From: a virus
Taxonomy: Duplodnaviria > Caudoviricetes
Virus record (IMG/VR): IMGVR_UViG_3300021446_000141
Span: 1 to 53,784 of that record
Direction: 5' to 3' (one strand)
Length of the DNA: 53,784 nt
Each line of letters starts with the position of its first letter. Position 1 is the first letter of the stretch. The notes beneath the pieces were generated by a model that ran no database searches, was not told the origin of the DNA, and saw only the letters and a program-made list of their open reading frames with translations. This document shows positions 1 through 53,784 of the stretch, piece by piece. Position numbers and translations under genes: made by a program.

Positions 1-160
1 GTTTCAATCCCTTGCCGTCTCCGTCACCATTTCTCACTCCCCTTCAACCGGACCCAGCGGGTCCGTCTTCATTCAAAAGTGAGGAATGGTACCGAAGTAG
101 TATTCATCTAATTGCGGTAGGACAATTACCTGTTGGGTCTCCCCCACTGCGACCGCACCC
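1..160 (-). ncRNA. 5' part of putative large structured ncRNA, copy 1 (runs off window edge)
   Basis: Diverged repeat of ~22161-22317. Helices 26-37/79-90 and CGGACCC-AGC-GGGTCCG (49-65) are kept despite sequence change. Minus-strand promoter at 179-194. Confidence 0.65.
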
Positions 161-178
161 CCAGCTTTGCTGGCCAGG

Positions 179-194
179 TACTTAAGTCTTTCGG
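179..194 (-). promoter_or_regulatory. BRE-TATA promoter of ncRNA copy 1
   Basis: Minus strand reads CCGAAAGACTTAAGTA, about 26 nt upstream of GGGTGCGGTC. Nearly identical at 22336-22351. Confidence 0.7.
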
Positions 195-5495: not shown

Positions 5496-5706
5496 GGGCC
5501 TGTGCGGCTGGAGTAATTTTCGTGGATCTGCAAATATATGGTGTAGCTGTATGAGCAGGGTGTTGCTGCATGAGTGAGGTGTCGCTGGAAAGGCTGGGTC
5601 CGACCACAGCCAGCCGAGTCGGGCCGCAAGGGGCACGGGTCTGCCCGGATTGATAGGTTTCGGGCCGAAACAAAGGGGTTAAGTGTGGCCGGTGCCATGT
5701 ATAGGT

Positions 5707-6320: not shown

Positions 6321-6401
6321 CGCCCGACGGGTAAGGGTACGGCCGAACGGTGGTGAGTGCAAAACGATGGGTTTATGTGTGTAGGGGGCCTTGTATTGAG
6401 T

Positions 6402-7103
6402 ATGCCACGTCAGGCAACACTCGGCGACAGTAGCCCAGCCTTCGACCACTATGATCAACACGCTGACCTGTATGATTACATACAGGGACGGCTCGACGCG
6501 ACGCGTCAGCGTTTCATGCAGGGAGACCGTGGGGTCAAGTGGCAAATGCTCGATAAGAGCGCGACCTTCGCCATTCTGTCCGCAAACACCCGCGTTAGGT
6601 TCCACGAGGCCGGTTTCGTGGACTTGATGGGTCTCACCTCACCCACCGAAGATGAAATCGCTGATGTGTTGCATGAAAACAATATCATGTACCACAACAA
6701 CAAAGCGAGATACATCTACGAAAACCGACGTGACGCCGACCGGGGGGCCATTATTTCAGCACTGGAGGCCGGTGAAATCGACAAAGCCCACCGCCTGATA
6801 ACCGAGGAGTATCTCGGTTTGAGTTACATGAAGGCCGCGTTTACCCTCGCTATGTTGGGGTTCGACCGCAAAATGTGTGTCGACACGAATGTCGCCCAAA
6901 ATGTGGGGTTAGAGGGTAAGGTGGGGGCGAACCTGAAAAATATCGGACAGTACGAGGACCTCTGTAAGGAGGTGCGCGAGGTGTATCAGGACCTAAATGA
7001 GTGTGTCAGCAACTTTATCTGGCAGTGGGCCACCTTCTCACAGTTCCGGGGAGAAGTGACAACTCACGACCCATTCTTCCTCTCGGTTGGAATAGATTTG
7101 TAA
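6402..7103 (+). CDS. HhH-superfamily DNA glycosylase-like protein (Ogg-like)
   Basis: NKARYI and GLSYMKAAFTLAMLGF...CVDTNV resemble the HhH-Lys and downstream Asp of archaeal Ogg glycosylase/lyases. Confidence 0.7.
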   Translation: MPRQATLGDSSPAFDHYDQHADLYDYIQGRLDATRQRFMQGDRGVKWQMLDKSATFAILSANTRVRFHEAGFVDLMGLTSPTEDEIADVLHENNIMYHNNKARYIYENRRDADRGAIISALEAGEIDKAHRLITEEYLGLSYMKAAFTLAMLGFDRKMCVDTNVAQNVGLEGKVGANLKNIGQYEDLCKEVREVYQDLNECVSNFIWQWATFSQFRGEVTTHDPFFLSVGIDL

Positions 7104-7145: not shown

Positions 7146-7820
7146 ATGGCACAATCAGAATGTCCTGTTTGTAGTGAAACAAAACAGTCACTCGGGAAAC
7201 ACTGGGCACGGTCTGCCAAATGTGATTACCCTGATCTTTTCGATGAGGAAAAGTCATTGTTAGATAGTTTACTGATTGGTGATGGAACATTGGATAGGTA
7301 CTCTGATAAGAATAACCGTCTATCCATAGGGGTAATCAGAGAGGAATATATTGACTATCTTGCAGAAAAACTCGATTGGTTAGTTGCCGATAAATATGTT
7401 ACTTCACCAGAAGGTGTACGTAGAAACAATAAATATTACAAGATAAATACTATTTGTCATCCATTTTTCAACCAAATGGAGGAAAGATGGTACCCGAATG
7501 GGGAAAAGTTCATGCCTGATACACTACAAATAACCCCCACCTTCCTTACACACTGGATATGTCAAGACGGTAATCTTTCTTGGAACCAATCAGGTACCGC
7601 CAGATACAAACTTGGCAATATACATTTTGGCGAACGCGAAGAGTTCTTTACTGAAAAGTTCAAGGACCTTGGATTTAACGTGGTAATTACCAATTATGAA
7701 CTCGGGTTTTCATCAAAAGATACTGATAATCTCCGTAGATTTATGGGCGGTCCATTACCGGGATACGAATACAAGTGGGCTGAAAACAAAGCAGAATACG
7801 ACAAAAAGAAACATCTTTAA
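7146..7820 (+). CDS. free-standing LAGLIDADG-type homing endonuclease with N-terminal Zn finger
   Basis: SLLIGDG and HWICQDG motifs; CPVC...H...C; markedly AT-rich and Lys-rich compared with neighbours. Confidence 0.8.
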   Translation: MAQSECPVCSETKQSLGKHWARSAKCDYPDLFDEEKSLLDSLLIGDGTLDRYSDKNNRLSIGVIREEYIDYLAEKLDWLVADKYVTSPEGVRRNNKYYKINTICHPFFNQMEERWYPNGEKFMPDTLQITPTFLTHWICQDGNLSWNQSGTARYKLGNIHFGEREEFFTEKFKDLGFNVVITNYELGFSSKDTDNLRRFMGGPLPGYEYKWAENKAEYDKKKHL

Positions 7821-12420: not shown

Positions 12421-12847
12421 AGCCTGACCTGTCAGATCGTTCTTTACCGTACGGTTGCGGAAGCACACGGCTCAGATTCAATTGACACTAACCCCCGTGC
12501 GGTGATACGAGAGGCCGGAGGCCTCTCGGCATGACGAGAGAGCTTCGCTCTCTCGAACCACTGCACATGTAAGGTGGTGCTGCAAAAGTATCGTGCCGCT
12601 GCAACTATACTACCAGCCGGGGACCGATTCGGGTTCGTTCCACACCTTGTCACACATCGGACACCTCCAGGTGTGGTAGTACTCGGTCGGTGGGTCGTCT
12701 ATCACCTCGCCGGTTGCACCACACTCGGTGCATCGGTCGGTCTCGAACGTCGGGATATGGTCGAGCGCCATACCCACCCTTGTGGCCCGATCCCTATAAA
12801 TCCCCCAGAAACGGAGGGTTTAAGTTTACGGGGTGATGTGTGGGGGT

Positions 12848-15395: not shown

Positions 15396-15587
15396 ACGGA
15401 AGTAGGGGCCTTCCGGCCGATCTGTCAATTCTTTTTTCCACCGTGCCCTTGCGGAAGCACACGGCATAGATTGAATTGACATATATTCCCTGTGGCTGGA
15501 CAAGTAGGGGTGTTGCTGCACGGGTATCGTGTACCTGCAAAAGTATCGTGCCGCTGCAAAGAACAGGTGTTGCTGCACCCGTCCGTT

Positions 15588-20192: not shown

Positions 20193-21380
20193 CTACTCGA
20201 ACCGCACGATGGCGTGCCCGTCGATCTCCATCGAGTCCACGAAGCCGTCGTAGTTGTAGGCGTCCGCGCCCGAACCGACCTCTCCGGTCGCAGTGGACCC
20301 GTTGATGTAGTCGTTGTCGTTTTTGTTCGCTTCCTCGGTCGTGGTCTTTTCGAGCGAACCCGTGACCGAGAACTCGTACTGTGCCGCCGGACCTGTCCCT
20401 TCGATGATAATGGTTTTCATGTTTCCGTTTTGATTGTAGATTTCCGTCGCAACCGCTGCGTTCACCATACCGGCCTGCTGCCGGTAGGACGATTCGTCGA
20501 TGGGTTGGGCCGTGTCGAGGAGTTGTCGTTTGAGATCCTGACCGGTGAGGCCCATGGTCTCCTGTACGGCCGCAGCCACGCCAGCCGTGATGGGAGCAGC
20601 AGCCGAGGTCCCGCCAAAGTAGCGGTTATCCTCACCAGCCGGCTCGATCACGATGTTGGTGCCAGGTGCTGCCAGATCTATTGCCTCTCCGTAGTTGCTG
20701 AATCCGGCCAGTTCCATGTCACCCCCCTCGTTGAAGGGCTCCCGTACGGCCCCAACGGACAGACATTCGTCGTACACTCCCGGGTAGTTCCACTCGGCCG
20801 GGTCGTCCGTCTCGTTGTTTCCTGCGGACTGAATGATCAGCATGTCCTCGGAGACGGCCCGGTCGACCGCATCCCGCAGGCTCTGGGACTCGTACCTATG
20901 GTACCGCGAGACGTTCAGGATGTCACATCCGTCATCGATGGCTTGGTGAATCGCCTCGTCCAGGTCACTGTCCCACGATCGGTAAGCTCGGATCGGGGTG
21001 TTAATCACCCCGGACGCGTCCTGGTCGTTGTTAGTTTCGCCTGCGAGCGTAAGGGCCACCTGGTCCTCGTGGGTTACCTTGTCCCCACCATGACAGGGGC
21101 TGGTGTCGTCGCCCTTGAGATCATACCCCCCGACGTAGTTGTCGTCCAGTTCGTTGTCCTCACAGTCGATCGGATCGCCCATGATTCCGACCGTGACGCC
21201 CGCGTTGTAGCCGTGGTGTCTCCAGTACGGCTCCATCCCGACCGCCTCCTGGTGCCAGGCCTGGTACTGGGAGTACGTGGGATCGTTCGGTTCCTCGGAG
21301 TGGGCCGATCCGACCCCACTGAACGCGGTGAGGCCGAGCGATGCACCTGCCGCCGTAGCGAGATACTGTCTCCTGTTCAT
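20193..21380 (-). CDS. Tat-exported subtilase (S8 family), divergent
   Basis: MNRRQYL Tat signal; SAGN, YPG, FSNYG, DLAAPG and GTSAAAP motifs; C-terminal beta-rich domain. Confidence 0.85.
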   Translation of the reverse strand: MNRRQYLATAAGASLGLTAFSGVGSAHSEEPNDPTYSQYQAWHQEAVGMEPYWRHHGYNAGVTVGIMGDPIDCEDNELDDNYVGGYDLKGDDTSPCHGGDKVTHEDQVALTLAGETNNDQDASGVINTPIRAYRSWDSDLDEAIHQAIDDGCDILNVSRYHRYESQSLRDAVDRAVSEDMLIIQSAGNNETDDPAEWNYPGVYDECLSVGAVREPFNEGGDMELAGFSNYGEAIDLAAPGTNIVIEPAGEDNRYFGGTSAAAPITAGVAAAVQETMGLTGQDLKRQLLDTAQPIDESSYRQQAGMVNAAVATEIYNQNGNMKTIIIEGTGPAAQYEFSVTGSLEKTTTEEANKNDNDYINGSTATGEVGSGADAYNYDGFVDSMEIDGHAIVRFE

Positions 21381-21804
21381 GCTCCGTGTGTCACACCTGG
21401 GGTACGTCCTCCCAACAGAAAAAACTTACGGCCGTAGAGGGTGTGATCTGACCACACCTGGCAGGGTCTGGCCGGACGGGTATCGTCCGACCACACGAGA
21501 TACATGTATGGTGGTACGGTATTGCATACCAAACTACCAACAACAAATAGTTGCGGCCAGAACCGTCTTGGTATGAGATGACCTTACCCGTACGACCAAA
21601 AGAGTGCGCGCTGCCTGGTGTGCTCGTATAGAAACCTTGTCAGGCCATACCAGTGGTCAGCACGGCCATATGAAGACCGGTACGGCCAGACCAGGCCTCG
21701 TTCTACCGCACCAGGAACCTAGTGGGACCGCACCCAGACCCGGGTGTAACCACACCAGTACCTGGTGCTATCAAACGTAGAATAATTCGGTCATATCTAT
21801 GGCC

Positions 21805-22317
21805 GGGTGCGGTCAAATCCCATGGGTACTGTTGAACTCCTCGGATACTGCGGGAGACCGCCGACCTGGTGTGTTACCAGTGAATGACAGTCGTAAAACG
21901 ACTGTCCTTGCCGTATGGAAGTCGCACAGCGACTTCCAGAGCCTGGCTGTTGCTGGCCAATCAATTCTCCCTCTCCAAAACGACCCAGCGGGTTGCTACC
22001 CCAACACTGGTACGGAGGTCGACCAAAACTATGGAAATCTCCGAACTGGTACGGTCGAACCACCGCCGGCCGTTCCGGAACCAATCCTCTGCCGTGCTGA
22101 AGGACCCACCACGGTCCTTTCCCAGCACGATCTCTTGGGCTACCACAGTTCGTATAGGGACGTTCAATCCCTTGCCGTCTCCGTTGTCATCTCTCATCTC
22201 CTCAACCGACCCACCGGGGTCGACCTCTTTCAAACATGAGAGATAGTACCGGACCAGTTTTCATCTAACTGTGGTAGAACAATTACCTGTTGAGCTTCCC
22301 CCACTGCGACCGCACCC
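21805..22317 (-). ncRNA. putative ~513-nt structured non-coding RNA, copy 2 (complete)
   Basis: 10-bp terminal helix 21805-14/22308-17; 11-bp helix 22140-50/22267-77; several more hairpins; own promoter; paralog at window start; no credible ORF. Confidence 0.75.
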
Positions 22318-22335
22318 CCAGCTTTGCTGGCCAGG

Positions 22336-22402
22336 TACTTAACTCTTTCGGCTCTTGAAATGGTAACGTTTCACATGAGACCTGTACCAAAAGACTTAAG
22401 TG
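22336..22402. promoter_or_regulatory. divergent BRE-TATA promoter pair
   Basis: Minus strand CCGAAAGAGTTAAGTA (22336-22351) faces the ncRNA; plus strand CAAAAGACTTAAGTG (22388-22402) faces the morphogenesis operon. Confidence 0.75.
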
Positions 22403-22488
22403 CCTCTGGGCCAAAGGTTCGATCGCCGGGCGAAACAGTTTTGCTTTGCTCACATCCGTGGAACTTTCTCCACGGTATTCGGTCGCTG

Positions 22489-23154
22489 ATGTCTACGCAT
22501 CTGAATTGGTCTGACTACAGTCCTCCTGATACGACTGGATCTGATCCTGTTCGTGTGGAGGAATCCCATGGTGACGCTACCATAGATCGCAGTCCATCCA
22601 GCGGGTCGCTTTCGGAAGAGCAGTGTTTCAACGACCGGATGTCGTACAGCCCGAACGATGGACGATCCTCGACCCGGACCACCTTCTACGCAGATGACTC
22701 CTCGGTCGACATGACGCCCCGCCAACGGGAACAGTACAGACGTTTGGCCAAATGGAACGATGACCAGTACGCGCCCGATCGGTCGATCCGGAACCTCGAC
22801 GCTAACAAGGAACGGTTCGCGCACACATGCGCCAATGCACTCGAACTTTGCGAGTATCAGCGCGACCGGGTGATCCACATCGTGAACGACATCGACTTCT
22901 CGAAGTACAACCCGGCGGGGCTGCGGTACGAGGAGGTCATCCTCTGTATCATCTCGCTCGTAATGTACGAGGAGGAGGGCCCCAGCTTCGAGGGGACCAT
23001 CCGCGACTGGTTCCGCGAGCAGGCCCAGGTCCATGACATGCTGGATGGGTCCCGACGTGGCAAGGTTAACAAGACGAAAATGGCGGATTTCTGGACGGCA
23101 CGTCAACATCTGCTGCGGAACACGGATCATTTCGATACACAGGAAATCTCATAA
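22489..23154 (+). CDS. TFB/cyclin-fold-like factor (resembles haloarchaeal proteins annotated RNA polymerase subunit epsilon)
   Basis: YRRLAKWN...DRSIRNL...HTCANALELCEYQRDRVIHIV...EEVILCII resembles the TFB B-linker plus first cyclin repeat. Confidence 0.6.
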   Translation: MSTHLNWSDYSPPDTTGSDPVRVEESHGDATIDRSPSSGSLSEEQCFNDRMSYSPNDGRSSTRTTFYADDSSVDMTPRQREQYRRLAKWNDDQYAPDRSIRNLDANKERFAHTCANALELCEYQRDRVIHIVNDIDFSKYNPAGLRYEEVILCIISLVMYEEEGPSFEGTIRDWFREQAQVHDMLDGSRRGKVNKTKMADFWTARQHLLRNTDHFDTQEIS

Positions 23155-23158
23155 CAAA

Positions 23159-24037
23159 ATGGTAAGCGACAAACCACAACCCGGACGGTGCGGTGCGAAG
23201 TGTAGGGATCGGGTCGGAATTGAGGTCTATTCGACCGACGTGAACAGTAGTGTGCCCTGGACCGAGGAGGAGATCGAGCGGATGTGGATGGTCGACCAGG
23301 AGGAGGCCGAGGAACCCGGCAAACTCGAACGGGTCGAGGTAGAACCGGAGTACCAGGAGGCCCGTGAGTACCGATGGGAGGACTGGGTGGTGTCGGACAT
23401 CGAACTGGATGATGGTGAACGCCTCCGGTTCCGGCCGGACGATGACGACTGGCCGCCATATATGAAGTGGTCTACCATGGAGGTCCAGGGACACTGCGAG
23501 AAGTTCCCCTCGCGTGCGACCGACAGTAGTCGTTGTTACATCCATGACGGGCCGGAAGATTCGTTTGACGAGGAGGACCGTTCACGCGGAGGGAAGAACT
23601 CTTCGGGTGGTAATGCGATGAAGCACGGTCTGTACGCACAGCGCGGGAACTACTACCAGTCGGTCTCGAACGAGGACAAACGGTGGATCGACGGTATGGT
23701 GGACTCCTGGGTCGAGAACGCTCCCTTCACGCGGGACAACGACGCCAAGGTCAACAAGCTGTTCCAGGTGGCGGTCGACGAGCACAAGATGTGGCGAGCG
23801 AACAACTACTTTGCCGAGGACGAGAACGACCTCGTGGAGTACGAGCCTTCCTATGACGCCGAGGGCAACTATGTGGGCGACGAGGCCGTGGAGAGTCCGA
23901 TGAACCTGGTATACGACCGCATGGCACGGACTAACATGACCATGTTGAAGGACCTCGGGGTACTGGAGGACCCGGAGTCCCAGCAGGCCGAGGCCACTGA
24001 GTCCCTCGCACAGAAACTATCGGGTGGTGGAGAATAG
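23159..24037 (+). CDS. terS: terminase small subunit (probable)
   Basis: RCGAK...RCYIHDG...GNAMKHGLYA motifs; position upstream of TerL. Confidence 0.7.
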   Translation: MVSDKPQPGRCGAKCRDRVGIEVYSTDVNSSVPWTEEEIERMWMVDQEEAEEPGKLERVEVEPEYQEAREYRWEDWVVSDIELDDGERLRFRPDDDDWPPYMKWSTMEVQGHCEKFPSRATDSSRCYIHDGPEDSFDEEDRSRGGKNSSGGNAMKHGLYAQRGNYYQSVSNEDKRWIDGMVDSWVENAPFTRDNDAKVNKLFQVAVDEHKMWRANNYFAEDENDLVEYEPSYDAEGNYVGDEAVESPMNLVYDRMARTNMTMLKDLGVLEDPESQQAEATESLAQKLSGGGE

Positions 24038-24396
24038 TGCTTCCGAAAGTAACGGAGTTCTCCGGAGGGTACTACCTCGTGGAGGACGTGTACCTCGAAC
24101 CCGACGGGAACGTGCGCCGGCCATCGGTGGAGCCCGCCTTCTACCGGTATCTTCGGGAGGACGTGTACGGGGGTCGGGAGATACCGATTACCGTAAAGTA
24201 CAACGATACCCACTTCGAGCTACATCCGGCTGAGGGCGTGCCGATCGACTCGATCGCTGTGCCCCCTGGGGTGCTCGATCGGTTCGGAGAGGTGGCCCCG
24301 GGCGACGGCACGGTCTTGCTGGCGAGGCCGAGGTCCTCGTACCGTATCGAGCAGATGCGGGCGTACTCGGGCTTCTCTCATGTCGACCCAAACTGA
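24037..24396 (+). CDS. DUF5802-like haloarchaeal protein
   Basis: EFSGGYYL...EP...HFELHP..GVP..SIAVP pattern, recalled from memory and not searched. Confidence 0.55.
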   Translation: MLPKVTEFSGGYYLVEDVYLEPDGNVRRPSVEPAFYRYLREDVYGGREIPITVKYNDTHFELHPAEGVPIDSIAVPPGVLDRFGEVAPGDGTVLLARPRSSYRIEQMRAYSGFSHVDPN

Positions 24397-25699
24397 TTCC
24401 CCTGACGAGGGCACGCTGCGGAACAAACCCTCGGCGTTCGTCAAGAGCGTGGTAGGTGCGGACCCCTTCTGGTACCAGGAGGACATAATGGACGCCGACT
24501 CGGACCGCAAGGTCTTTCGTGCGGGCCGACAGGTCGGTAAGTCCCGTGTAGCCTCCTGGATCGGGCTGCACCAGGCAGTCACCAATTCGGATGTAGACGT
24601 GCTGATTACGGCGGATGCCCAGCGCCAGTCCTCGGAACTGTTCGCCCAGGTGAAAAAGGAGATGTCCATGTCGAACTTCACGGAGGACGACTGGGGGGTC
24701 ACCCGGGACACTGCCACCATGATGGAGTTCGATAACGGCTCACGGATCATCTGCCTCCCGACGGGTCGAGACGGCCAGAAGATTCGGAACTACGCGGCCG
24801 ACCTCATTATCGTGGACGAGGCTGCCTTCATCGACGACACCATCTACGAGGACGTGCTCGAACCGATGACGTTCGTGACGGACGGGACCATGATCCTGTG
24901 TTCGACCCCGTGGGGCCAGAGCGGGTATTTCTACGACAAAGCAAACCACCCTGACTGGTACGAGGTCCACGTCTCGTCGTACGACAATCCTGAGATTTCC
25001 GATGAGAAGATCGAGACGTTCAAAGAGGGCAAGTCTCACGCGACTATCCAGCAGGAGGTCGAGGGCAAGTTCGTCCCCGAGGCGGATAACTTCTTCGACC
25101 CGGACCTGGTACGGGATGTGGTCGGAACCGAGGACGGTACGCCCGTACGGTTCGAGGGCGAGGAGGTCTATCTCGGGGTCGATCCGGCCGACTCGGGTAT
25201 GGACGACACGGCCCTTGTACTGATGGACGATGACGGAAACGTGTTCGACATCGAACACCATCAGCAGATGAAACTACACCAGGGCAAGGAACGTATCAAG
25301 GCCCTGGATCGTAACTACAACTTCGATGAGATCGTGATGGACAAGACCGGTCTCGGGAAGGGTCCTGTCCGGGACCTGGAACACAAGATTGGCTCCTCGG
25401 TGAAGGGGATCAAGTTCACGGTCCCGAAGAAACAGGACATGTACCAAACTCTCAAATTCGATATGGAACAGGACAACCTGACGATCCAGAACCATGACGA
25501 GCTACGGACACAACTGAACAACATGACGGGAGACAAGACCCGATCGGGCCGATACAAGATCCATGCGGGGTCGGGGAGCGATGACCTGGTGGACGCCCTC
25601 GTGTTGGCGAACTACCATGCCGATACGGAGGGATCTCGTGGAATGGCCCGGAACGCGGCCACTGGTGCGCGGTTTATGGGATCGCTTCGAGAACTATGA
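24380..25699 (+). CDS. terL: terminase large subunit
   Basis: Walker A GRQVGKS, Walker B IIVDEAAF, STP motif, nuclease GVDPA...DDLVDA. Confidence 0.95.
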   Translation: MSTQTDSPDEGTLRNKPSAFVKSVVGADPFWYQEDIMDADSDRKVFRAGRQVGKSRVASWIGLHQAVTNSDVDVLITADAQRQSSELFAQVKKEMSMSNFTEDDWGVTRDTATMMEFDNGSRIICLPTGRDGQKIRNYAADLIIVDEAAFIDDTIYEDVLEPMTFVTDGTMILCSTPWGQSGYFYDKANHPDWYEVHVSSYDNPEISDEKIETFKEGKSHATIQQEVEGKFVPEADNFFDPDLVRDVVGTEDGTPVRFEGEEVYLGVDPADSGMDDTALVLMDDDGNVFDIEHHQQMKLHQGKERIKALDRNYNFDEIVMDKTGLGKGPVRDLEHKIGSSVKGIKFTVPKKQDMYQTLKFDMEQDNLTIQNHDELRTQLNNMTGDKTRSGRYKIHAGSGSDDLVDALVLANYHADTEGSRGMARNAATGARFMGSLREL

Positions 25700-25787: not shown

Positions 25788-28457
25788 ATGAAGGTTCCCA
25801 AAACTACGGAGGAGGTAGCGCAACTGTTTCGCGTTACTGACGAGGAACCCGAGCCGAGGGCGACCCGCAAGGCCTCAACGGAGGTCCTCTCGGGGGACTA
25901 CGAGGAACATCACGCCCCGGAGGACGAGATGGAGGAGTACTGGCGGATCTACGAGAACTTCTCTGTCGTCCGTACCTCTATTTATTCGTTCTCACAGGAG
26001 GTGGTCGAGCCGGGCTGGTATGTGGTCGCCTCGAACGAGGAGACTGCGACGGAACTCACCGAGTGGCTCACGGAGTCGGTCACCACTGGGGGGGAGGAGG
26101 GCCAGGACTTTTCGGAGATACTTCGACGGGTGACGGTCCAACGCGAGGTACGTGGGACCGCACTGGTCGAGAAGGTTCGGGGCTCGAACAGTGATAAGAT
26201 AGTCGCACTACAGCTATTGAATCCCGAGACCTTCAAGGTCTATACACAACCTCAGAGTAACGTGCTGGTCAAACCTGATGACGTTGACCTTGACGCCGAG
26301 GAGATCACGGAGAGCCGGCAGAGGCGTCGTCGGGCCTCACGGGACACGGTTCCGGTCACGGATGAGGGTGAGGGGGCTGCCTACGTACAGTACGATCATG
26401 ACCTCCATCGGTGGAACAACCGCGACGAGGTGTTCTTCACCAACGACGAGATCATCAAGTTCACACGGGACGACGATGTGGGCGAGGTGTTCGGTACCTC
26501 CCGAATCGAGTCGGTGGCGGACCGGGTACACGGACTCCAGCAGAAACTGAAGGACAACGACGAGGCCATTGCACAGAAGGCCTACCCGTTCTGGATGTTC
26601 CGGGCGGGTCCCGAAGACGGTGAGGACATGTGGGACGAGGAGGACATGGACGACTTCCTGGAGAATCATGACGCCGAGAAGTTCGGTCCGGGCATGAAGC
26701 AGATGGTTCCGGGAGACCTGTCCCTCGAAACCCACTCGGGCGACACTGCGGACATATACGAGTCCGTCAAGTACGACATCGACCACATCTCGGTGGGACT
26801 CCCGATGCCCCAGTTCTCCCTGGGGGCGTTCGGTGAGGACGTAAACAGGGCCCGTGCGGAGGCACAGGAGAACCGTCTCCGCCGGCAGGTAAAGGACGTG
26901 CGCGGGGAACTGGAGGCGAAGTTCACACCCCTCCTTCGTGAGGTCGCACGTGAGCGGGGTCTGGACGACCCCGACGAGGTTGCCCTCAAGGTGGGTCGTC
27001 CGGGCGAACCCTCCCCCGAGGCCCAGGAGGTCAACCGTAACATGATCCAGTACCAGTCGAACAGTCCGCAGGCCCGACAGGGCCAGCGTGGGCCCCGTAC
27101 GGACCGACGGTTCTCGGCTGGCCCGAACGACACGAATGGCCCGCCCTCGGGTGGTGTGGTCCCACGGGCCAACGATCCGACCACGGACAATCCGGGTGAC
27201 CCTGGATCGTATACGGCTACCCCGGACGCGACCGGTGTGGATGTATCGGGTGGTGGGGACGAAGGGGAGTCCCTTCCGGTCGTGCAGATGTCTGGGGACC
27301 CATCGGGATCGGTTTGGGACGCAGAGGACCCTGGTCTCCAGGAAGTAGAGGAACTTGCGGACCCACGGTATGTTTCGGTCCGATCGGATACCCGCTCTCT
27401 GAAGAACACCATCGCCGAGTATCTGAGGGAGGTCCGGGACGAGACCCTCGACCGTCTGGACGAAAAGGGCTCGTCCCGACAGAAGGCGATCGAGTCTGAA
27501 CGCATCATGAACCGAGTCGTCGCCGATGCGAAAGGCTCGCATGGACTCCAGGCCGAGATCGACGAGGCCATGGAGGAGACGGTCCGTAGGACAATCGACT
27601 CCCTCAACAAACAGTACCACTCGCCCCCGATCGAGACCCACTACGGGGTACGGGCGGAGTCGAACAAAGAGGCCTACAGTCGGTCCGCAATGGCCTCGGT
27701 CGAGGAGATGACGGAGGACCTTCGGCACTACCTCCAGCAGATCGTGGTCCGAGGGGTCCAGAACGGGGAGGACTTCGATCGTATCCAGGAGTCGGTCCGC
27801 GAACGGTTCTCGGACGAGGAGATCGACCGTCGGTCTCGACTCGTGGCACACATGCAACTCAAGAAGGCCACGGAGTCGACCAAGCTAAAGGAGTACGAGG
27901 CCCATGAAGAGGTCGTGGGCGTCGAGGTGGTCAACCCTTGCACCGAGGACACGACTCGATTGTGCCGTAATCTGGCCGGCTGTACGGGTACTGAGGTACG
28001 GGCCTTCTTCGGACCGGACCGTGACGTTGCCTCCCAACTCGAAGCCGATGTGGGGGGCGAGGAGCTATACGATGGGTTCACACCCCTCCCGGCTGCGCCC
28101 CCATATCACTATGGGTGCCGGAGTACCCTGGTCCCGGTCTCGGCGAAGGAGACCGACTCCCTCTCGAAGCATGGCTCGACCATGTTCGAGGAGACCGATC
28201 CGGTCATGACCCCGGAGGGTCCGGGTATCGTGGTCCGGGTCATGGAGCACAACTTCCTGATCCAGCCTAACGAGAACGAGTCCCACAGGGAGGTTCAGGC
28301 TGCACCGGACAACACGGCCTATGTGGTCTCCCTTATGGGCCAAGGTCGGCAGGTGTTCCGAATCGAGGACCTTCAGGAGGCCGACGTGAACTTCCAGACT
28401 ACTGAACCCTCCTCGGATGACGAGGAATCCGACCCCGATAGGGAGGAAGAGAACTGA
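25788..28457 (+). CDS. portal protein fused to MuF/SPP1 gp7-like domain
   Basis: Follows TerL; FGTSRIESV portal-like motif; low-complexity linker; PPYHYGCRS MuF signature. Confidence 0.85.
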   Translation: MKVPKTTEEVAQLFRVTDEEPEPRATRKASTEVLSGDYEEHHAPEDEMEEYWRIYENFSVVRTSIYSFSQEVVEPGWYVVASNEETATELTEWLTESVTTGGEEGQDFSEILRRVTVQREVRGTALVEKVRGSNSDKIVALQLLNPETFKVYTQPQSNVLVKPDDVDLDAEEITESRQRRRRASRDTVPVTDEGEGAAYVQYDHDLHRWNNRDEVFFTNDEIIKFTRDDDVGEVFGTSRIESVADRVHGLQQKLKDNDEAIAQKAYPFWMFRAGPEDGEDMWDEEDMDDFLENHDAEKFGPGMKQMVPGDLSLETHSGDTADIYESVKYDIDHISVGLPMPQFSLGAFGEDVNRARAEAQENRLRRQVKDVRGELEAKFTPLLREVARERGLDDPDEVALKVGRPGEPSPEAQEVNRNMIQYQSNSPQARQGQRGPRTDRRFSAGPNDTNGPPSGGVVPRANDPTTDNPGDPGSYTATPDATGVDVSGGGDEGESLPVVQMSGDPSGSVWDAEDPGLQEVEELADPRYVSVRSDTRSLKNTIAEYLREVRDETLDRLDEKGSSRQKAIESERIMNRVVADAKGSHGLQAEIDEAMEETVRRTIDSLNKQYHSPPIETHYGVRAESNKEAYSRSAMASVEEMTEDLRHYLQQIVVRGVQNGEDFDRIQESVRERFSDEEIDRRSRLVAHMQLKKATESTKLKEYEAHEEVVGVEVVNPCTEDTTRLCRNLAGCTGTEVRAFFGPDRDVASQLEADVGGEELYDGFTPLPAAPPYHYGCRSTLVPVSAKETDSLSKHGSTMFEETDPVMTPEGPGIVVRVMEHNFLIQPNENESHREVQAAPDNTAYVVSLMGQGRQVFRIEDLQEADVNFQTTEPSSDDEESDPDREEEN

Positions 28458-52105: not shown

Positions 52106-53784
52106 ATGACGAAATATGAATGGGTCCAAAACGATCACGAGGAGATCGAGACGGACCTCACGACACTCGATGGCGCACCACGGGACCTCGATCTAACAGG
52201 ACGGAAGGTTAACTATGTACTGAGGCACTACCTCGGCCCAAAGGTGGCAGACAAGGAGGCGAACGTGCAGGGTACGACCGCAAAGGTGGAACTGACCCCT
52301 GACAACCTCTCACGTACCTCCAAACACATGGCCGAGTGGGTTATCACGGGTGGAGAAGACGATCCCACAACACTGCCCAAAGACGGTTCGATCGGGGCCA
52401 AAGTCCGGGCATCCGTGGACAACGGTGGGAACGTAGCCGAGCCCCTCGTCGAGGATAAGACCGTCGATACCCTCACCGTGAACGGTCTAACTGGATCTCT
52501 TACCGATGGGACCGAAATCGACGACCTGGTGGGGACGAACCTCTCCGTTTCGGGTGGTACTCTGAAGGCGACCGATACCGACACACAGCTATCGGATGAG
52601 GACGTACAGGACCTGGTTGCGGGACTACTGAGCGGGTCCGGTGCGACCAGTGTCTCCTACGACGACAGTAATGACTCAGTAACGGTCGAGAGCACCGATA
52701 CGAACACACAGCTATCGGGCGAGCAGGTCGAGGACATTGTGGCCGAACTGGTAGAGGGTTCGGGCGCAACAAGTGTCTCGTACGACGACACGAATGGAAC
52801 CCTTACTGTCGATAGTACGGATACCGACACACAACTATCCGATGAGGAGGTACAGGACGTTGTGGCCGATTTCGTCTTGGCTGGCAACAACGTGGCGGTC
52901 TCATACGACGATAGCGGTAACGTTCTATCAGTATCCTCGACGGATACTAACACACAGCTATCGGATGAGGACGTACAGGACGTTGTGGGCGGACTGGTGA
53001 CAGGTTCGGGTGCGACCAGTGTCTCCTACGATGACAGTAACGGGACCCTTACGGTAGAAAGTACCGATACTGACACACAGTTGTCCGATGAGGACGTACA
53101 GGACGTTGTGGGCGGACTGGTGACAGGTTCGGGCGCAACGAGTGTCTCATACGACGACAGTAATGACGTTCTCACAGTATCCTCGACGGATACCGACACA
53201 CAACTATCCAGTGAGGAGGTAGAGGACATGGTGGCGTCGTACCTGTTGGGCGGGAACAACGTCCAGATCAGTTACGACGATGCAAACGATACGTTAACAA
53301 TTGACGCCAATCACGACCACTCGGGTGAGACCCTGGGCACGTCGTCCTCACCGGTTAGCACCGTTCACGCGGACGTGACCAATGCGGGGGAACTGTCCGC
53401 TGATACGTCCACAACCGCCGAGAAGCCTGTCTACGATGTGGCCTCTTATGGGGCTACCGGGGACGGGTCTACCGACGACACGGCAGCCATTCAGTCCGCA
53501 ATTGACACCGGTATCTCCAACGGCGGTGGGACCGTCTACCTTCCGAACGGGACCTATGTGATTTCGGACGAGCTTGTCGTCGGGGACGGTATCAGTATCG
53601 AGGGCGACGGGCGGGACGCTACTGCGATCGAAACCGATCAGAGTGGGTCCGGAGCGAGCTTCCCTGGCGCAATGATTGCAGGTACTGACGTATCCGATTT
53701 CCACCTCGAAGGACTCTCCATGGTGGGGCCAGGGGTAAACGCCTCCTATGGTGCAATGTTGTTCCGGTCGAGGTACAACATTGC
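52106..53784 (+). CDS. tail fibre/spike adhesin with pectate-lyase-like beta-helix (truncated by window)
   Basis: ATG at 52106, appears open to the window end (absent from the ORF track); YDVASYGATGDGSTDDTAAIQSAI...VYLPNGTY. Confidence 0.85.
   Translation, partial: MTKYEWVQNDHEEIETDLTTLDGAPRDLDLTGRKVNYVLRHYLGPKVADKEANVQGTTAKVELTPDNLSRTSKHMAEWVITGGEDDPTTLPKDGSIGAKVRASVDNGGNVAEPLVEDKTVDTLTVNGLTGSLTDGTEIDDLVGTNLSVSGGTLKATDTDTQLSDEDVQDLVAGLLSGSGATSVSYDDSNDSVTVESTDTNTQLSGEQVEDIVAELVEGSGATSVSYDDTNGTLTVDSTDTDTQLSDEEVQDVVADFVLAGNNVAVSYDDSGNVLSVSSTDTNTQLSDEDVQDVVGGLVTGSGATSVSYDDSNGTLTVESTDTDTQLSDEDVQDVVGGLVTGSGATSVSYDDSNDVLTVSSTDTDTQLSSEEVEDMVASYLLGGNNVQISYDDANDTLTIDANHDHSGETLGTSSSPVSTVHADVTNAGELSADTSTTAEKPVYDVASYGATGDGSTDDTAAIQSAIDTGISNGGGTVYLPNGTYVISDELVVGDGISIEGDGRDATAIETDQSGSGASFPGAMIAGTDVSDFHLEGLSMVGPGVNASYGAMLFRSRYNI
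52571..53308 (+). repeat. six 123-bp (41-aa) coding tandem repeats
   Basis: Consensus TDTDTQLSDEDVQDxVxGLxxGSGATSVSYDDSNxxLTVxS. Confidence 0.9.

Follow-up and report, generated by a model that had tools for sequence, protein, structure and literature searches.

ROOL and GOLLD are large "ornate" RNAs of phages and prophages that assemble into homo-oligomeric cages or rings, and the pRNA of phi29 is a phage-encoded, structured packaging RNA with paired ends. To our knowledge, large structured RNAs of unassigned function are uncommon, nearly all of them coming from bacteria and their phages. In the present study we analysed a window of 53,784 bp (a whole IMG/VR record, listed as linear and estimated by CheckV to be 46% complete), which carries two diverged copies of one sequence unit: copy A at the left end (1–194) and copy B in the interior (21787–22351). 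These copies are probably paralogous, virus-encoded genes for a structured non-coding RNA (ncRNA) of a new family; we infer the transcription, strand, ends and mode of action of this candidate RNA as set out below.

The window encodes a portal protein with a Mu-F domain (25788–28457), a T4-type large terminase (TerL; 24380–25699), a small terminase (TerS; 23033–24037) and, on the minus strand, an S8 protease (20193–21380). The TerL protein has its closest cultured counterpart in Halogranum tailed virus 1 (HGTV-1; 40.7% identity), and the closest database proteins reach up to 54%. The virus is a haloarchaeal tailed virus distantly related to HGTV-1, and the runs that contain the sequence of the record, which come from two studies, are labelled as halite metagenomes. 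The region between 1.2 and 18 kb carries small plus-strand ORFs, most of them without a family match. A free-standing gene for a LAGLIDADG_2 homing endonuclease (7146–7820, E 1.5e-16) lies inside an island of 42.5% GC, with an Ogg-HhH glycosylase-like ORF (6357–7103) just upstream. Near the other end, five 123-nt tandem repeats of 66–79% identity (52569–53288) were found within an open-ended ORF (52106–53782). An IMG/VR contig that is 99% identical to the record (G001) extends 1871 bp beyond its right end, and the last 27 nt of the record (53758–53784) match this contig in the inverted orientation, so that the right end may be a fold-back artefact. This contig does not include the RNA unit, its end falling at 22380 in the interval that separates the back-to-back promoters described below.

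A preliminary description of the window had reported that positions 1–194 recur near 22161–22351, which was confirmed both by MAFFT (1–194 aligned to 22161–22354) and by BLAST within the record (3–194 versus 22163–22351, 84% identity, E 1.1e-53). The repeat is direct, with an offset of 22157–22160 bp. The longest identical block, given earlier as 45 bp (141–185), is indeed present, although its measured length is 46 bp (140–185 = 22297–22342), and it is accompanied by identical blocks of 22 bp (3–24 = 22163–22184), 14 bp (122–135 = 22279–22292) and 9 bp (103–111 = 22260–22268). A 21-mer taken from the longest block occurs twice in the window, versus 0.00 occurrences expected from 100 shuffles. 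The similarity was also correctly said to end just upstream of a BRE: the match between the copies stops at 194/22351, where the minus-strand BRE has its upstream edge. As judged by MAFFT, BLAST and the covariance model R1 (which scored copy A at 167.7 bits and marked it as cut at the 3' end), copy A comprises the promoter and the first ~160 nt of the candidate RNA on the minus strand, cut by the left end of the record.

For a view of natural variation, contigs of four halite runs from two studies (X1–X4) were aligned to 21400–22700 at 80% likeness. These contigs diverge from the window exactly at 22351, with three kinds of flank, and also at 21787 and 21765, and the boundaries of the unit were therefore placed at these points. 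At least three different flanks were found on each side of the unit in the community. One of the flanks at 22351 is the window's own copy-A flank, which was seen in X2 and X4, i.e. in different studies. This observation bears on the nature of copy A, as a record that begins inside a repeat could owe its first letters to a chimeric contig end. Such an assembly artefact is, in our estimation, the most improbable of all explanations, given that in contigs of the two studies A-type sequence continues into the right flank that it has in the window (GTGTCAACTATTATC...) and that the differences typical of copy A recur in X1, X3 and X4. The flanks also bear on the remark that the two copies bracket a 22-kb accessory region: this is true as geometry only, the unit being found with at least three flanks per side.

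Several copies, sharp edges of homology and at least three flank contexts, as well as a length of 330–565 bp and a 10-bp inverted repeat near the ends, are features that a non-autonomous mobile element (MITE or PATE-like) spread among halite viruses might also display, its fold then representing transposition hairpins. However, the true edges (21787 and 22351) are 18 and 34 bp further out than the inverted repeat and are not themselves inverted repeats, and no target duplication is visible. Moreover, no transposase, TnpB or IscB was identified among the scanned ORFs, no match was obtained from Rfam HEARO or other models, and the copies are 16–36% diverged with compensation, which does not resemble random decay. 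A mobile element is thus an improbable explanation of the unit.

The promoter of the unit is of the virus's own type. The window contains 22 TTAAGT sites (11.6 expected), approximately 15 of which occur in a cgAAgGGtTTAAGT context with ATGG 29 nt downstream; the cgAAgGGtTTAAGT sites are promoters of leaderless early genes, with which copy B has in common both the hexamer and an A/G-rich sequence upstream of it. Between 8350 and 15580 we observed 11–15 copies of an intergenic cassette of 94–136 nt, composed of a hairpin (ACCGTGC...GCACACGG), the BRE/TATA motif (cgAAgGGtTTAAGT) and ATGG 29 nt downstream, which looks like a terminator-promoter module placed ahead of every small early gene. On the minus strand, the two RNA units have ccgAAAGAnTTAAGTacc. 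The promoter scan and the comparison of the copies revealed the BRE-like CCGAAAGA (read on the minus strand; TCTTTCGG is its reverse complement) at 187–194 in copy A and 22344–22351 in copy B, and the scan placed the TATA-like TTAAGT at 180–185 and 22337–22342, respectively, i.e. at the right distance for a minus-strand RNA gene. If the 29 nt between TATA and ATG in the leaderless promoters are taken as a guide, the transcript of copy B is predicted to start at 22314–22317, within the first bases of its closing helix. The promoters of the two units thus resemble those of the cassettes at 8.3–15.5 kb in BRE/TATA type (cgAAgGGtTTAAGT) and in start spacing; however, the latter drive leaderless protein genes, whereas the former are followed by ~300–550 nt without an ORF and possess a palindromic spacer. 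This spacer (22320–22336), as read from the sequence, contains the palindromes CTGGCCAG and CCAGC-AAA-GCTGG, which are identical in the two copies and may therefore function as an operator. A scan for promoters and terminators of bacterial type returned 0 sites, its models being bacterial and hence uninformative for archaea.

Copy B is located between back-to-back promoters at the point where the packaging module begins. The packaging/structural operon (TerS, TerL) has a divergent promoter on the plus strand, whose TTAAGT the promoter scan placed at 22396–22401; this promoter lies 54 bp from that of copy B. Arrays of 19–20-nt periodic repeats (of the GTGTTGCTGCA / GTCGCTGGAG type) are present at 255–345, 5528–5590, 12561–12604 and 15497–15578, one of them directly beside copy A; these arrays may be regulator sites or iterons.

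The whole conserved unit of copy B (21787–22351, minus strand; promoter, candidate RNA and 3' tail) has its edges at the divergence points of the contigs of other runs. The minus-sense fold of 21790–22325 (536 nt) has a minimum free energy (MFE) of −224.1 kcal/mol (z −5.52), and none of 100 shuffles was as good. The predicted transcript is closed by a 10-bp helix, P1, in which the 5' strand GGGUGCGGUC (22308–22317, placed by folding and promoter spacing) pairs with the 3' strand GACCGCACCC (21805–21814, placed by folding). Within P1 the fold and the alignment of the copies place an invariant 4-bp hairpin with a GUAA loop of the GNRA type (22279–22290), followed by the P2 domain (22140–22277), where an 11-bp P2 (22267–22277 with 22140–22150) encloses a P3-P4-P5 arm (22185–22255) and P6 (22156–22172). 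The strands of P4 are ATCTCTCAT (22189–22197) and ATGAGAGAT (22236–22244), and the arm ends in the hairpin CGACCC-ACCG-GGGTCG (22207–22222). Folding and natural variants define the two-tier hairpin P7 (22094–22128). These elements form part of a core of ~270 nt, outside which lies an inner (3') domain of ~235 nt with hairpins (21815–22049). After P1 there is a conserved 3' tail (21787–21804), as homology reaches 21787, and downstream of the unit a U-rich stretch, AUUAUUCUACGUUUGAUAG (21765–21786), which is a possible archaeal terminator; U-runs are also seen in two other flanks (reverse complements). Internal repeats within copy B amount to pairs of 10–15 nt only.

Several further features of this region were recorded. 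A second, proximal sequence in the core, GACCGUACC (22048–22056), could serve the 5' strand of P1 as an alternative partner to 21805–21814, and in the short-form variants described below the two partner motifs are almost in tandem. P6 may be T-loop-like, since with its U.G pair open (AGGGA-UUGAACG-UCCCU) it would match a T-loop in size and in U..A spacing. A second GGGUGCGGUC-like box occurs at 21724–21737 in the minus-sense reading, and a near-perfect hairpin of ~83 nt lies downstream of the RNA of copy B (21625–21707), where it is the source of chance matches to miRNA models.

The inner domain appears to be optional, as suggested by the contigs of other runs, some of which represent short forms. 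A joint connecting 21814 to 22050 was present in four contigs from three runs (separated in X1 by 12 other letters), and a joint connecting 21850 to 22050 in two contigs, with TTT in between; in a contig of X3 (record 19), 50 other letters stand in place of the inner domain. The two joints suggest natural short forms without the inner domain, in which the helix would close after ~290–350 nt.

In copy A, the sequence and fold place the 5' strand of P1, GGGUGCGGUC, at 151–160, and its partner beyond the end of the record; if copy A is a short form, the contigs suggest that its closing helix lies ~290–350 nt from the start. The helices quoted in the preliminary description exist in the sequence of both copies. 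Folding of copy A gives a P4 formed by ACCATTTCTCAC (26–37) and GTGAGGAATGGT (79–90) around the hairpin P5, CGGACCC-AGC-GGGTCCG (49–65). Regarding AATTGCGGTAG (109–119), P2 would retain 10 of its 11 pairs, with one G.U and one A.C, if copy A shared the 3' strand of the B type; such sharing is hinted at by an A-type contig (X4 record 23), which is near-identical to copy B over 22101–22160.

Divergence between the copies is distributed very unevenly along the candidate RNA. Read in the RNA sense, the first 29 aligned positions are all identical (29/29), the GNRA hairpin with the 5' strand of P2 shows 31 identities in 37 positions and the ACGGAGACGGCAAGGGAUUGAA block 22 in 24, while only 49 of 76 positions (64%) are shared in the P3-P5 arm. 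Judging from the two sequences, invariant junctions combined with variable stems form a pattern typical of structured RNAs. Over the 86 columns of the arm, 26 substitutions and one 3-nt indel separate the copies, and yet each arm alone folds into the same P3-P4-P5 stack (A −38.5, B −31.8 kcal/mol). Random mutants of copy B with the same number of changes had a mean energy of −21.3 (sd 4.3), and one in 2000 reached the energy of copy A; the reverse test yielded 35 in 2000. In the MAFFT alignment 92.9% of 85 cells were paired, versus 38–51% with slid partners. Three pairs are changed on both sides between the copies, and a single G-C pair is inserted in P5, causing the alignment to mis-register this helix.

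Natural variants of P7 point in the same direction. Both changes of one compensatory pair (22103G>A with 22116C>T) were present in a single X2 contig, and those of another (22096G>A with 22126C>T) in a loose end before 22142, alongside 22116C>T. In the X3 contig mentioned above (record 19), 22096G>A and 22099G>A are not accompanied by changes in their partners, so that G.U pairs result in the minus sense only. Selection on RNA structure in two paralogous RNA genes, as proposed earlier, thus gained support from the retained fold (mutant test), the double changes together with the P7 variants, and the promoter. The covariation statistic lent little weight to this proposal: 56 of 500 shuffles reached the observed values, a non-significant result obtained with only two sequences, one of them truncated. 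The unit does not appear to be protein-coding, as the ORFs over it are without a PHROG match and the differences between the copies include 1-nt and 3-nt indels.

The distribution of the most conserved positions has to be weighed against another explanation, according to which the unit is a regulatory or recombination module acting at the DNA level (an operator and promoter region, a boundary "linker", or a transcript-primed origin) at junctions of gene blocks, with hairpins that either are fortuitous or function as DNA. Invariance is indeed greatest over the promoter, the palindromic spacer and the first 28 transcribed bases, and the spacer is as invariant as the RNA. In X1 the summed contig depth (which is not a copy number) was 9.1–9.9 over the flanks, 20–39 over the RNA body and 106–121.5 over 22280–22367, a peak which indicates that the promoter and 5' end are common to many different contigs. 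The position of copy B at the beginning of the packaging module and between back-to-back promoters, the end of the 99%-identical contig at 22380, just outside the unit, and the periodic repeats that adjoin copy A would also suit a DNA element. On the other hand, compensatory changes and an inserted pair maintain helices more than 100 bp from the promoter, which a protein-binding DNA site does not need, G.U-type changes are tolerated in one sense, and a helix that pairs the first and last bases of the unit is a feature of the transcript level. We therefore consider a DNA element unlikely, although it is the strongest competitor of the minus-strand ncRNA genes.

The strand of the functional RNA was assessed from the promoter and the folding of the arms, which together make the minus strand very probable. 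Folding of the arms is more favourable in the minus sense (copy B −31.8 versus −23.7 kcal/mol, copy A −38.5 versus −31.6 kcal/mol; 4 versus 1 G.U pairs). Single variants were divided almost equally, five being tolerated in the minus sense only and four in the plus sense only (22020, 22084, 22171 and 22295); this tally set aside A-like and compensated sites and used 33 of the 40 rows listed, with 35 further differences outside it, and several of the underlying pairs are long-range MFE pairs of doubtful reality. Relative to shuffles, both strands fold about equally well, the fold of copy B in the plus sense being comparably unusual (z −5.73 versus −5.52).

These last results would also be expected of a functional RNA transcribed from the plus strand (~21805 to 22350) and ending in the hairpin CCAGC-UUU-GCUGG. 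Besides the fold and the four listed single variants that fit the plus sense only, such an RNA would turn one mismatch in the P4 of copy A and one in the inner domain of copy B into G.U pairs (the positions favouring this sense are a C.A in the P4 of copy A and an A.C in the CAACCC/GGGUCG hairpin of copy B), and at its 3' end the hairpin is followed by a C/U-rich stretch. However, it would have no conserved promoter: the homology of the variants begins only 18 nt upstream of the helix, with differing left flanks that contain no TATA at the right distance, whereas the minus-strand BRE/TATA fits the viral consensus at the right spacing. In addition, the arms would be 7–8 kcal/mol weaker, and the U.G extension of P4 would be converted into C.A mismatches. 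A plus-strand RNA is accordingly improbable, if marginally less so than a mobile element.

No known RNA family was recognised in the window. A search of its whole length with Rfam 15 (4227 families, the ROOL and GOLLD models included) gave 0 matches at the gathering score, and at E ≤ 10 returned only three chance matches to miRNA models, located in the hairpin at 21625–21707 outside the unit. ARAGORN detected 0 tRNA or tmRNA genes. The model of archaeal RNase P RNA (RF00373) had no match in the window, while the same search was positive in 11 of 14 control genomes, including that of Haloferax volcanii. In view of the strong fold and the lack of a match to any known RNA family, the transcript is probably a new virus-encoded ncRNA.

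The ACGGAGACGGCAAGGGAUUGAA block presumably resembles the repeats of haloarchaeal type I-B CRISPR systems (AGACGG ... GGGAUUGAA). This resemblance and the invariance of the block between the copies could indicate an RNA decoy of the host CRISPR system that mimics such a repeat. The 22-mer, with up to three ungapped mismatches, was nevertheless found in only 3 of 401 sampled genomes, once in each and without an array (the reversed control gave 2), and none of the CRISPR-DR families in Rfam gave a match at E ≤ 10. A decoy is very improbable, nearly to the same degree as an artefact of assembly. Of possible antisense targets within the window, four perfect 13-mers were noted and rejected, this number being about the chance expectation.

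Relatives of the unit were sought in several collections. No match was obtained in INPHARED (distant blastn) and PLSDB. Of four exact patterns searched in IMG/VR, one gave two loci, both unrelated AT-rich chance matches, and the other three gave 0; no IMG/VR contig carried the P7 27-mer, and none was related via the protein adjoining copy A. An exact pattern gave 49 loci in JGI metagenomes, all of them chance matches by BLAST, and 0 in GTDB contigs. The S8-peptidase neighbour, used as a query, returned no locus. Relatives of TerL were found at 79 IMG/VR loci and 80 genome loci, none of the latter haloarchaeal, and comparison of both copies with the TerL-related IMG/VR loci and the HGTV-1 loci (blastn, nhmmer) revealed nothing. 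The covariance model R1 (189 positions, 51 pairs), run over the window and 57 related loci (516 kb), detected only copies A and B, the other four matches having E > 2; it detected none in the whole of HGTV-1 or in four IMG/VR records, G001 included. Among 401 genomes of the phylum Halobacteriota (sampled evenly; the phylum is that of a Methanomicrobia MAG), only chance matches of 24–40 nt were obtained. Since a homolog was absent from all the collections searched, the breadth of the family is that displayed by the community contigs. We found no structured RNA of haloarchaeal tailed viruses in PMC7002113, PMC13532342 and PMC8651126, whose supplements may bear on this point.

Taken together, a promoter and an end-paired transcript conserved as one unit, compensated stems, invariant junctions and a variable peripheral domain constitute the signature of a structured RNA gene. 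Minus-strand ncRNA genes are better supported than each of the alternatives, i.e. a DNA element, a plus-strand RNA, a mobile element, a CRISPR mimic and an artefact. On the evidence of the sequences, this virus has two or more paralogs, and further variants exist in the community. We propose that a BRE/TATA promoter of the viral type, with a possible palindromic operator in its spacer, would drive minus-strand transcription, and that the first bases of the transcript, GGGUGCGGUC, would pair with GACCGCACCC near its 3' end. Between the strands of P1, the ~270-nt core would comprise the GNRA hairpin, the three-way P2 domain (P3-P4-P5 arm and P6) and P7, and would be followed by a dispensable peripheral domain of 12 to ~235 nt, a short tail and a U-rich stop. 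The invariant junction blocks (the 5' 29 nt, CAACAGGUAAUUGU, UUAGAUGAA and ACGGAGACGGCAAGGGAUUGAA) may then represent the functional core, with the stems acting as struts only. The competing 3' partners of the 5' strand (GACCGUA at ~22050–22056 versus GACCGCACCC at 21805–21814) could provide a conformational switch. If the copies are indeed RNA genes, their product might, by analogy with ROOL and GOLLD, be a stable, end-protected RNA with a trans-acting role during infection, namely as a scaffold that binds protein or self-assembles, a mechanism that we put forward with considerable reserve. With its paralogs per genome, natural length variants and community variants, the family is well suited to covariation and structure work, and it could reveal an RNA-based step in the infection cycle of haloarchaeal viruses.

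Several known systems share individual traits with the candidate RNA. As in RNase P RNA, SRP RNA and Y RNA, its first and last bases pair and a conserved core is combined with variable peripheral domains, the possibly T-loop-like P6 being a further common trait, but it matches neither the RNaseP_arch and SRP models nor any other Rfam family. Copy B resembles phi29 pRNA in context, since it adjoins terminase genes; however, the candidate RNA is three times larger, its second copy lies 22 kb from the packaging genes, the Rfam pRNA model gave no match, and this virus possesses an ordinary TerS/TerL pair. The omega/HEARO RNAs of IscB/TnpB elements are likewise structured (200–400 nt), borne on mobile DNA and common in haloarchaea, whereas the units described here have no adjacent tnpB or iscB gene (as judged by a domain scan of the neighbours), carry an invariant 5' 29 nt that is not a guide, and show no match to HEARO. 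A further parallel is with ROOL and GOLLD, which are also virus-borne, non-coding, multi-helix RNAs of several hundred nucleotides that have their own promoter, combine variable stems with invariant junctions and are not known to have a partner protein; the candidate RNA differs from them in belonging to an archaeal virus, in having at least two diverged paralogs per genome and an optional domain of ~235 nt, and in lacking an Rfam match. It is therefore conceivable, although we advance this only tentatively, that the units represent the first class of large "ornate" RNAs in archaeal viruses: a multi-copy family of 300–550-nt RNAs of halite haloviruses with an invariant factor-binding or self-assembling core, swappable peripheral domains and their own operator-controlled promoters.
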